8,847 nucleotides of DNA from a virus (IMGVR_UViG_2534681993_000021:1-8847), one strand, 5' to 3'. Positions 7,293 to 8,847 are shown, counted from the first letter of the stretch. The notes: generated by a model not told the origin, from the sequence alone. Numbers and translations: made by a program.

Positions 7293-7323
7293 AAAAGATA
7301 ACGCATTGATTGCGTTATCTTTT
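7293..7323 (-). terminator. Hairpin terminator at the 3' end of the repressor gene
   Basis: Perfect 13-bp inverted repeat AAAAGATAACGCA (7293-7305) / TGCGTTATCTTTT (7311-7323) with a 5-nt loop. The minus-strand transcript has a 9-bp core stem followed by a U-run. It overlaps the dicA-like stop codon (7315-7317). Confidence 0.5.
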
Positions 7324-7722
7324 GTTTGTTCGTTGACGGGCTTTTAATAACTCTTCAAAGAGTTTGTTGAAATTTTTTACTCGGGCGCGCATCTCGGTGA
7401 GCTGAGCATCCTGTTCTGATTCAGGCAATGCATTAAAAAGCTCAAGGAGCTCATGTTCTTTGGGGGATAGAGCAACTGGCTCCTCAATAGGTGGTGATGG
7501 CTGCTTGTCTTCATCGCCAAATAGAATCCATGTTGGCGAGCACTGCAGTACTTTGCTGAGGGCAAAAAGATTCTTTCCTGTAGGTTCGCTATCATCCCGC
7601 TCCCATTGTGAAACCGATACGTGAGAAATTTTCAGGACTTTAGCAAGAGACCTTTGGGTGTATTTGAGGTTTTTTCGGCGATATCTAATGCGTTCGCCAA
7701 TGGTTAAATTTTTTGTATCCAT
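7315..7722 (-). CDS. dicA: Phage repressor, HTH XRE family, DicA-like (CI-type)
   Basis: 135 aa. MDTKNLTIGERIRYRRKNLKYTQRSLAKVLKISHVSVSQWERDDSEPTGKNLFALSKVLQCSPTWILFGDEDKQ... reads as a near-identical match to E. coli DicA as I recall it, with the same length. Divergent from a Cro-like gene. Confidence 0.9.
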   Translation of the reverse strand: MDTKNLTIGERIRYRRKNLKYTQRSLAKVLKISHVSVSQWERDDSEPTGKNLFALSKVLQCSPTWILFGDEDKQPSPPIEEPVALSPKEHELLELFNALPESEQDAQLTEMRARVKNFNKLFEELLKARQRTNKR

Positions 7723-7805
7723 AGTTAGCTAATGCTAAATCTTATTGACTATGTTTTTGTTAACATCTATTTTGTTAGTCATGGCTAACAATCAAGGTGC
7801 TTTAA
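7723..7805. promoter_or_regulatory. Divergent promoter/operator region between repressor and cro-like gene
   Basis: Rightward promoter: -35 TTGACT (7745-7750), 17-nt spacer, -10 TATTTT (7768-7773). Operator inverted repeat TTGTTAGTCATGGCTAACAA (7772-7791) sits just downstream of the -10. Weaker operator-like palindrome TTAGCTAATGCTAA (7725-7738) abuts the dicA start. SD AAGGTG (7794-7799) precedes ATG 7806. Confidence 0.55.
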
Positions 7806-8036
7806 ATGCTTAAAACTGACGCACTTTTGTATTTCGGTTCAAAAACAAAACTTGCACAAGCTGCTGGTATTCGTTTGGCTTCGCTTTATAGCTGGAAAGG
7901 GGAGCTAGTACCTGAAGGTCGCGCGATGCGCCTGCAAGAGGCATCCGGCGGGGAACTTCAGTACGACCCCAAAGTTTATGACGAATATCGTAAGGCAAAG
8001 CGGGCGGGGCGGTTGAACAATGAAAATCACCCCTGA
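7806..8036 (+). CDS. dicC: Cro-like regulator, DicC-like
   Basis: 76 aa. MLKTDALLYFGSKTKLAQAAGIRLASLYSWKGELVPEGRAMRLQEASGGELQYDPKVYDEYRK... matches E. coli DicC as I recall it, same length. Good SD 6 nt upstream. Divergent from dicA. Confidence 0.85.
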   Translation: MLKTDALLYFGSKTKLAQAAGIRLASLYSWKGELVPEGRAMRLQEASGGELQYDPKVYDEYRKAKRAGRLNNENHP

Positions 8037-8571
8037 ACAGGTTTGTGAGGCTCTGGATGCCTGGGTGTGCCGACCAGGAATGACACAGGAACAGGCGACG
8101 ATATTAATCACGGAAGCATTCTGGGCTCTGAAAGAACGCCCGAACATCGATGTTCAACGCATCACGTTTAATGATGGCGAGGTTGATCAACGGGCACTGG
8201 GCGTTAACCGGGTGAAGATATTCGAACGCTGGAAAGCTATCGACACCAGGGATAAGCGGAAAAAATTCACGGCGCTGATTCCGGCAATTATGGAGGCTAT
8301 CCGAATTAGTGATTTCAGGTTGTATCGTGAGATCAGTGATGGAAAAAGCATTACGTACATGATCGCCGGATTAAACAAAGAATATGGCGATGTGGTGGAG
8401 TCCGGGCTGCTTTTTGCGGATCCATCTGTTGTGGAACGTGAGACTGACGAGCTTATAGAAAAAGCTATTGCTTTCAAGCATGCGTATCGTCAGCAGTATC
8501 AATATTACTTTGCAGATAAACAAATATCTGCCAGGGGTTCGTATGAGTATCGATGCACTACGATGGGCTAA
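8020..8571 (+). CDS. YdaT-like protein (in the CII-like position)
   Basis: 183-aa ORF overlapping the dicC-like 3' end by 17 nt. N-terminus MKITPEQVCEALDAW and an internal LIPAI segment resemble the YdaT family that follows Cro-like genes in Rac-type prophages. The family assignment is from memory and is tentative. Confidence 0.5.
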   Translation: MKITPEQVCEALDAWVCRPGMTQEQATILITEAFWALKERPNIDVQRITFNDGEVDQRALGVNRVKIFERWKAIDTRDKRKKFTALIPAIMEAIRISDFRLYREISDGKSITYMIAGLNKEYGDVVESGLLFADPSVVERETDELIEKAIAFKHAYRQQYQYYFADKQISARGSYEYRCTTMG

Positions 8572-8847
8572 AAAGGTGAAAACCGGCAGTTCATCCAGTA
8601 AGTCTGTATTGACCTGGCTTGCTGATATGTGCGGTGCCGATTTGTGTGCATACCCGTCTGTATCTGCACTGGCAGAAGTAACGGAACTGAACAAAAAGAC
8701 TGTGCAGGACAGCTTACGACACCTGATGGAGATTGGGTTAATTGTTGATACCGGTGAGAGAAAAGGCAGAACAAAGCAAATTGTGGTGTACCGACTTATC
8801 GGTGTAGAAGAAAGTGTTGCCGAGCCTGAATACACCCAAAAACGGGT
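8543..8847 (+). CDS. Phage replication initiation protein, N-terminal winged-helix/HTH domain (3'-truncated by window end)
   Basis: ATG 8543, open to the window end with no stop (101 codons). MSIDALRWAKKVKTGSSSSKSVLTWLADMCGADLCAYPSVSALAEVTELNKKTVQDSLRHLMEIGLIVDTGERKGRTKQIVVYRL is typical of the HTH N-terminus of lambdoid O-like replication proteins. Overlaps the previous gene by 29 nt. Confidence 0.6.
   Translation, partial: MSIDALRWAKKVKTGSSSSKSVLTWLADMCGADLCAYPSVSALAEVTELNKKTVQDSLRHLMEIGLIVDTGERKGRTKQIVVYRLIGVEESVAEPEYTQKR

Follow-up and report, generated by a model that had tools for sequence, protein, structure and literature searches.

Two genes diverge in the viral DNA analysed here, a repressor gene read leftward and a cro-like gene read rightward, and the locus raises the question of how the short spacer between them accommodates both promoters and their operators, and how the repressor is made when no Shine-Dalgarno (SD) sequence precedes its ATG. 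The window, by which we mean the whole stretch of 8,847 bp, holds the repressor ATG at 7722-7720 (minus strand) and the cro-like ATG at 7806. The gap is exactly 83 bp, the figure given in the initial annotation and read directly as 7723-7805. Our main reading, to which we assign a probability of about 0.85, is that the spacer forms the right-operator region of a lambdoid immunity module of the P22 type, namely the dicA-dicC switch of a Qin-like prophage. Its features are collected in Table 1.

Table 1. Positions of the genes, promoters, operators and translation signals of the dicA-dicC region, numbered from the first nucleotide of the window.
Feature	Position	Strand	Description and basis
OL-type operator pair	7229..7279		TTAGCCATGACTAA at 7229-7242 and TTTGCCATGACTAA at 7264-7277; Oc-like, predicted
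dicA	7315..7722	-	135-aa CI-like repressor, ORF; HTH_3 (Pfam, 6e-16)
Divergent promoter/operator region, PRM/PR analogue	7723..7805		83 bp
dicA leader ACU, 3 nt	7723..7725	-	Putative here, transferred from K-12 mapping
Oa, OR3-type operator-like palindrome	7725..7738		TTAGCTAATGCTAA; sequence and family conservation
PdicA -10 box TAGCAT	7732..7737	-	Inferred from sequence and the K-12 start; without recognisable -35
PdicC	7745..7773	+	-35 TTGACT (7745-7750), 17-bp spacer, -10 TATTTT (7768-7773)
Degenerate middle site, Om / OR2 position	7750..7763		TTAACAAAAACATA (minus strand); position inferred from family alignments
Oc, OR1-type operator	7772..7791		TTGTTAGTCATGGCTAACAA; core TTAGTCATGGCTAA at 7775-7788; inverted repeat
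dicC Shine-Dalgarno AAGGTG	7794..7799	+	6 nt upstream of the dicC ATG; sequence
dicC	7806..8036	+	76-aa Cro-like protein; P22_Cro (Pfam, 1.3e-11)

The identity of the two genes is well founded. The repressor is 93% identical to K-12 DicA over 135 aa and the 76-aa protein 97% identical to K-12 DicC, and the RefSeq names for the identical sequence are dicA and dicC, in agreement with the dicA-like and dicC-like labels first attached to them. At the DNA level, a prophage of E. coli O145 RM9872 matches the 951 bp around the spacer at 100% identity, and the K-12 Qin prophage matches them at 89%. Closer in, a 131-bp region around the spacer shares 97% identity with K-12, and the 19 nt upstream of the dicA ATG are the same in the window and K-12. 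The best match of the whole window is the pathogenic E. coli strain CFSAN027343 (99.4%). By sequence, a DicA orthologue, a divergent DicC, the Oc operator and a downstream operator-bearing promoter are all present, as expected of a member of the DicA/DicC (Qin-type) module. The dicA start codon was also considered: the ATG at 7722 is the first start codon past the upstream stop, the next methionine is residue 111, and the DicA N-terminus aligns throughout the family and also with P22 C2. An alternative start was ruled out, there being no second in-frame start near the N-terminus. A Pfam search found no peptidase S24 domain in the repressor, which at only 135 aa lacks a RecA-stimulated self-cleaving C-terminal domain. 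This is a known trait of DicA, which is under the control of the antirepressor Rem (Ragunathan 2023, PMC10448788).

Rightward transcription can be assigned to PdicC, which matches 9 of the 12 promoter consensus positions and is the sole promoter-like match both in 7150-7950 and in 7700-8847. Since a single match is what chance predicts (1.0 and 2.0 expected for the two scans), the promoter is validated here not by the scan but by its homology to the K-12 dicC promoter, the start of which was mapped by 5'RACE and the corresponding -10 box of which carries the -11 A (Yun 2012, PMC3441716). The good rightward promoter seen initially is thereby upheld. Its predicted start near 7780 would give dicC a 26-nt leader. 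Compared with K-12, the spacer carries five substitutions: two in the Oc centre, one in the dicC -10 box (TATTTT here, TATCTT in K-12), one at -17 of the dicA promoter (7742) and one just upstream of the dicC SD. Across the 27 protein clusters of the family described below, the dicC -35 box (AGTCAA on the dicA-sense strand) is kept in 23, the remaining four having AGTAAA, and an SD-like core is found on the cro side in 25.

Oc (7772-7791) is a 10+10 inverted repeat, TTGTTAGTCA/TGGCTAACAA, that extends across the end of the dicC -10 box and the start predicted near 7780, which agrees with the operator palindrome previously placed over the likely rightward start. It is of the TTGTTAG-N6-CTAACAA type and differs from K-12 Oc at just two central positions. 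In K-12, DicA binds Oc and single-base Oc mutations abolish binding; DicA represses dicC, and dicA-side transcription from a 103-bp spacer fragment requires DicA (Yun 2012, PMC3441716). The operator pattern TTAGYNNNNRCTAA, with at most one mismatch, occurs four times in the 8,847-bp window against 0.82 expected (4 copies were reached in 2 of 200 shuffles). All four copies fall within the two regulatory regions flanking the repressor gene, two in the spacer and two just downstream. Among E. coli prophages encoding a DicA at least 93% identical (loci L010-L089), the central hexamer of Oc is highly polymorphic, with transitions only: its variants follow TTAG-YYATRR-CTAA in at least eight combinations. 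The same loci hardly differ over the 45 nt that run from the -35 box of dicC to the dicA ATG, where one A/C site occurs at 7742.

The two downstream copies form a second operator cluster that the initial annotation did not mention, as it did not mention the degenerate middle operator of the spacer. The operators TTAGCCATGACTAA and TTTGCCATGACTAA lie 35 bp apart over a leftward promoter (-35 TTGACC at 7249-7254, -10 TAATCT at 7226-7231) that precedes a DUF1391 (ydfA-like) gene recognised by Pfam. The 7226-7279 cluster is the PL/dicBp analogue of Qin, in which dicBp is repressed by DicA (Ragunathan 2023, PMC10448788). It lies 546 bp from Oc, and OL-OR looping is therefore conceivable.

Several observations concern the neighbourhood of the switch. 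A perfect 13-bp stem with a 5-nt loop (AAAAGATAACGCA...TGCGTTATCTTTT, 7293-7323) overlaps the dicA stop codon and, because T-runs occur on both strands, looks like a bidirectional intrinsic terminator between dicA and the promoter of the leftward operon. An ORF survey of the window found neither dicB nor dicF. Between the exonuclease and the ydfA-like gene, where the window has no dicB or dicF, the O145 RM9872 prophage with the identical immunity region has dicB together with a DUF1482 gene. The recombination arm itself is a mosaic in which an exonuclease ORF of 819 aa (4221-6680) overlaps an ORF of 187 aa (6433-6996) on the same minus strand, the latter with no Pfam match. On the other side, a YdaT-family gene of 183 aa (8020-8571, plus strand) overlaps the end of dicC by 17 nt. 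Its K-12 counterpart is ydfX, a truncated pseudogene, and its counterpart in phage PhiR42_1 is annotated cII, which raises the question of a CII/PRE-like establishment pathway for dicA. At the far end of the window, a 328-aa ORF (808-1794, plus strand) has the HEIIH zinc-metalloprotease motif and corresponds, in the annotation of matching genomes, to NleC, a type III secretion effector. Its position next to the prophage integrase end suggests a tandem prophage or an effector island junction.

The repressor side of the spacer looks very different from the cro side. No SD-like 4-mer is present in the 25 nt upstream of the dicA ATG (CAATAAGATTTAGCATTAGCTAACT), which agrees with the initial annotation. 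Such an absence is expected from base composition, 95% of shuffles being without an SD core, and it is the contrast with the cro side that is informative. Duplex energies with the anti-SD sequence discriminated poorly (several automatically called ORF starts in the window are probably wrong, and the short anti-SD underrates AAGGTG), and a simple count of SD cores was used instead. The sequence before the ATG on the minus strand ends in ...AATAAGATTTAGCATTAGCTAACT-ATG, and the mRNA would start at the A at 7725 (or 7726). This position comes from K-12, where the primary dicA start was placed 3 nt upstream of the ATG by dRNA-seq and RLM-RT-PCR (Romero 2014, PMC4681348, Table S3, Fig. S1); depending on the coordinate conventions of that table, the leader is 3 or 4 nt, an uncertainty of 1 nt. 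Under a Rend-seq criterion of a 5'UTR of at most 5 nt, dicA is also among the known leaderless genes (Zhang 2022, PMC8794815). The initial suggestion of a leaderless or short-leader mRNA, as in lambda cI, thus stands as regards the short leader, which is published for the K-12 orthologue, and has to be amended as regards its length, about 3 nt and not the 0 nt of lambda. Near-leaderless status has been published for racR and ymfK as well as for dicA, and the observation is therefore correct but known.

Given this start, TAGCAT occupies -12 to -7, with the key -11 A and -7 T kept, and ends 9 nt upstream of the dicA ATG; the -35 position is taken by ACAAAA (7755-7760). PdicA would accordingly be a weak promoter with a -10 box alone, in keeping with the published failure to find a consensus. 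A consensus scan of 7150-7950 and of 7700-8847 found no minus-strand promoter, but such a scan is blind to -10-only promoters, and for this reason the dicA promoter was placed from the published start. In K-12, no consensus dicA promoter is visible (Yun 2012, PMC3441716), Reg-Seq detected no RNA polymerase site in the dicA region, and DicA amounts to some 20-25 copies per cell. The dicA and dicC start sites are about 55 bp apart, the dicC -35 box (7745-7750) falls inside the dicA promoter spacer, and the centre of Oc is at about -56.5 of the dicA promoter.

Comparison with relatives indicates that this arrangement is a property of the whole family. DicA relatives were collected from Citrobacter and Serratia genomes, from phages PhiR42_1 (Escherichia) and BUCT709 (Stenotrophomonas), from the PPompW region in the Stx2_EH1910 record and from IMG/VR contigs. 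The genome-contig search gave five loci; the first search of viral contigs returned only relatives at least 93% identical, and re-ordering the query alignment brought in diverged ones. The resulting set comprises 59 distinct upstream sequences in 27 protein clusters, with 56-100% amino acid identity to the window protein. An SD-like 4-mer between -20 and -1 of dicA was found in none of the 59 distinct upstream regions, and all 59 carry TAGNAT, ending 8-9 nt before the ATG (6 nt in two). The 68 nt upstream of the dicA ATG are conserved beyond the coding sequence itself (94% vs 70% in Citrobacter, 81% vs 64% in Serratia). The geometry hardly varies: from its start to the ATG the distance is 66 nt for Oc and 15-16 nt for Oa, the middle position lies 25 bp from each, and the family consensus reads tgTTAG.ttT..cTAA-cAaa.TAgat..Ta..gA.A.ctaAGTcAAga.aAtTTAGaATtA.CTAActATG.

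The whole DicA-type switch was encountered outside Escherichia in Stenotrophomonas phage BUCT709, Serratia rubidaea and Citrobacter, where the SD-less ATG 9 nt past TAGNAT, the AGTCAA box and the fixed operator distances are conserved. A change of the recognition helix from SHVSVSQWE to AHVTISQWE accompanies a change of the operator arms from TTAGY/RCTAA to TTAGA/TCTAA. A Qin-type dicA-dicC pair with a DicA 93% identical to the window protein was also seen in contig JAIIUG010000151.1 (2.5 kb), assigned to a 'Collinsella sp.' MAG and most likely a mis-binned Enterobacteriaceae contig.

The second palindrome, Oa, abuts the repressor ATG as first described: the 14-mer at 7725-7738 is 2 nt away and its 18-mer form (7723-7740) touches the ATG. 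Oa spans -13 to +1 of the inferred dicA promoter, a placement that ruled out a lambda-like geometry with OR3 between the PRM -10 and -35 boxes. Both arms persist in 26 of the 27 family clusters, and at the two variable positions, 5 and 10, Oa tracks the Oc of the same locus (32 matches in 50, a score equalled in 0 of 10000 shuffles), a figure that is inflated by sequence relatedness and should not be read as a probability. Between the two operators, the Om candidate is centred 25 bp from Oc and from Oa and has three mismatches to TTAG-N6-CTAA; PPompW-type loci have a good operator at this middle position (GTAGAGAAACCTAA), and P22 OR2 shares it. Published K-12 assays detected DicA binding at Oc alone (Yun 2012, PMC3441716). 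On the comparative evidence, Oa is probably a real OR3-type operator. Its most likely ligand would be DicC, given the Cro preference for OR3 and the DicC data. In a 2024 preprint, DicC ChIP-seq gave peaks on both sides of dicA, at a resolution too coarse to separate Oa from Oc, 50 bp apart, together with a palindromic motif, TT(A/C/T)G...C(G/A/T)AA, and DicC induction lowered dicA 48- to 84-fold (PMC11430063).

It could be argued that Oa is not an operator and that its conservation reflects nothing more than what the promoter and the mRNA demand: a TAGNAT -10 box, the context of the start site and the 5' end of a transcript that is nearly leaderless. The only published test of Oa points that way: in an in vivo K-12 assay, DicA did not bind Oa or Om, both of them operators predicted from sequence (Yun 2012, PMC3441716, data not shown), for which reason the operator status of Oa rests here on comparative evidence. 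The assignment of the 'Oa' and 'Om' of the literature to the present coordinates follows from the descriptions in Yun 2012 and Ragunathan 2023 and is likely rather than certain. Moreover, the left arm TTAG shares bases with the -10 hexamer, and the right arm, lying on the start site and discriminator, could affect start choice or translation from a 3-nt leader; in an AT-rich region a partial palindrome could also arise easily. Yet the right arm, (N)CTAA at -4 to +1, is under no strong sigma-70 requirement and is nevertheless kept in 26 of 27 clusters, and the variable positions of Oa follow those of the Oc of the same locus. Oa also aligns with P22 OR3, Cro proteins of lambdoid phages generally prefer OR3, the DicC ChIP motif fits Oa and DicC strongly represses dicA (PMC11430063). 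We therefore regard a non-operator Oa as unlikely. A related matter is how DicA stimulates its own gene, since Yun 2012 (PMC3441716) showed only that the dicA promoter needs DicA, which fits either direct activation or a relief of competition in which DicA on Oc evicts polymerase from the strong, overlapping dicC promoter. The latter draws on the closeness of the starts (about 55 bp), on the dicC -35 box lying between the dicA -10 and -35 positions, and on an Oc centre near -56.5, which is not a classical class I/II activator position. Against it, DicA has a distinct C-terminal domain, and the P22 and lambda repressors are direct activators of PRM. Relief of competition is thus a possible explanation that we hold to be somewhat less probable than its contrary.

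A further alternative is that most DicA comes from a longer transcript initiated upstream, for instance at a PRE-like promoter in dicC or ydaT, and is translated independently of an SD by virtue of A/U-rich sequence, the -3 end being minor or processed. Lambdoid phages do possess a further repressor promoter, the CII-dependent PRE; dicC is followed by a YdaT-family gene whose PhiR42_1 counterpart is annotated cII, and YdaT has been proposed as a functional CII equivalent; the 20 nt upstream of the ATG are 78% A+T. The weight of the data is clearly on the other side. The K-12 -3 end was classed as primary, with RLM-RT-PCR on TAP-treated and untreated RNA (Romero 2014, PMC4681348), the Rend-seq criteria demand the strongest 5' end within 200 nt (Zhang 2022, PMC8794815), the consensus scan found no leftward promoter-like site in 7700-8847, and the 103-bp intergenic fragment suffices for DicA-dependent expression (Yun 2012, PMC3441716). 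We consider a predominant long transcript very improbable; a long dicA transcript confined to the establishment phase would not contradict the near-leaderless start preferred here.

With transcription of dicA beginning next to its ATG and Oa probably serving as an operator, the switch could work as follows. The strong sigma-70 promoter PdicC would drive dicC, the ydaT-family gene and downstream early genes from about 7780, with a leader carrying a normal SD. Bound to Oc as a dimer, DicA would mask the start site along with the end of the -10 box and turn the dicC promoter off, and DicA at the 7229-7279 operators would block the leftward ydfA-like operon in lysogeny. The weak -10-only promoter would start dicA mRNA about 3 nt before the AUG, and translation would therefore proceed without an SD from a 5'-proximal AUG; such SD-independent, inefficient translation fits the 20-25 copies of DicA per K-12 cell. 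Transcription of dicA would need DicA at Oc, through direct contact or through removal of polymerase from the overlapping dicC promoter. Upon inactivation of DicA by Rem, stress or titration, the dicC promoter would fire, and DicC, bound to TTAG-N6-CTAA sites, among them the Oa that lies over the -10 box and start of dicA, would switch dicA off and complete a bistable switch. Excess DicA may possibly also act at Oa to turn dicA off. In this scheme we infer that the K-12 results carry over to the present allele, and likewise the precise -10 box, the part played by Oa and the promoter competition.

The supported switch interpretation is not new, as the locus represents one allele of a switch already known, the dicA-dicC switch of Qin, and is homologous in structure to the right operator of P22 immC. 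It is of interest that a lambdoid switch and its SD-less repressor gene can be recognised from sequence alone. The module silences a prophage in a lineage of pathogenic E. coli in which the effector gene nleC sits beside the prophage integrase, and in Qin the DicA module also silences the toxic division inhibitors DicB and DicF. A near-leaderless mRNA would keep DicA at a very low level and so make the switch sensitive to titration, antirepressors and stress. What is added here is comparative and of modest novelty, namely that the DicA family as a whole has kept both the SD-less layout and the OR3-like site, together with the evidence for a functional Oa. It is tempting to go further and propose that Oa functions as an OR3-type operator, chiefly for DicC and in a weak or cooperative manner for DicA, in spite of the negative DicA test, and at the same time that self-activation by DicA is a relief of polymerase competition. 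This combined proposal is tentative and, in our judgement, rather doubtful. If true, the DicA/P22-type layout would be a mechanistically distinct and more compact version of the lambda switch, and its conservation would reach from Escherichia as far as prophages of Serratia and a phage that was isolated on Stenotrophomonas.

Among known systems, the closest is the Qin (Kim) prophage of K-12, which shares the 83-bp spacer, Oc, Oa, the dicC promoter, the SD-less dicA and the operator pair between dicA and ydfA. The K-12 locus has been described as a bistable switch resembling that of lambda, in which dicCp and dicBp have three operators each and Rem is the antirepressor (Ragunathan 2023, PMC10448788). 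In the window prophage, unlike Qin, the arm of integrase, excisionase and exonuclease is intact, and so is the ydaT-family gene. Judging from the sequence, the published K-12 functions and the dicA mRNA with a 3-nt leader should apply directly to the window allele.

P22 immC resembles the locus in a C2 repressor whose N-terminal DNA-binding domain is homologous to DicA (59% over 63 aa), in a Cro of the P22_Cro family, in a spacer of 80 bp (83 bp here) with the PR -35 TTGACT in the same place, and in three operator positions about 23-25 bp apart, P22 OR2 and OR1 occupying those of Om and Oc. We take the OR1/OR2/OR3 names of the P22 literature to apply to the aligned sites. P22 OR3, which is a repressor/Cro site, abuts the c2 ATG (ATTTAAGATGACTTAACT-ATG) just as ATTTAGCATTAGCTAACT abuts the dicA ATG. 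The two differ in their half-sites (TTAAG in P22, TTAGY here), in the middle operator, which is degenerate in the Qin type, and in the repressor, as the 135-aa DicA has no RecA-cleavable C-terminal domain and is controlled by Rem instead.

The lambda cI/PRM-PR region has in common with dicA-dicC the divergent repressor and cro genes, an operator region with three positions (the middle one degenerate here), a repressor that blocks cro and is needed for its own transcription, and a Cro that represses the repressor gene. In both, a second operator cluster is found beyond the repressor gene, and the repressor mRNA has no SD. It differs in that the cI leader is 0 nt, against about 3 nt for dicA, in the placement of OR3, which in lambda falls into the spacer separating the PRM -10 and -35 boxes, compared with -13 to +1 for Oa, and in that CI has the RecA-cleavable domain that DicA does not. 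The PRM and PR start sites of lambda are about 82 bp apart, compared with about 55 bp here, and the promoters therefore overlap much more in the dicA-dicC spacer. Finally, racR (Rac), ymfK/cohE (e14) and paaR2 (CP-933P) are likewise SD-less repressor genes in the cI position that start at or next to the AUG, each with a short spacer (97 bp in the case of paaR2) between it and a divergent gene of the cro or ydaS type. Unlike dicA, they have 0-nt leaders and unrelated operators, and paaR2 heads a toxin-antitoxin operon.
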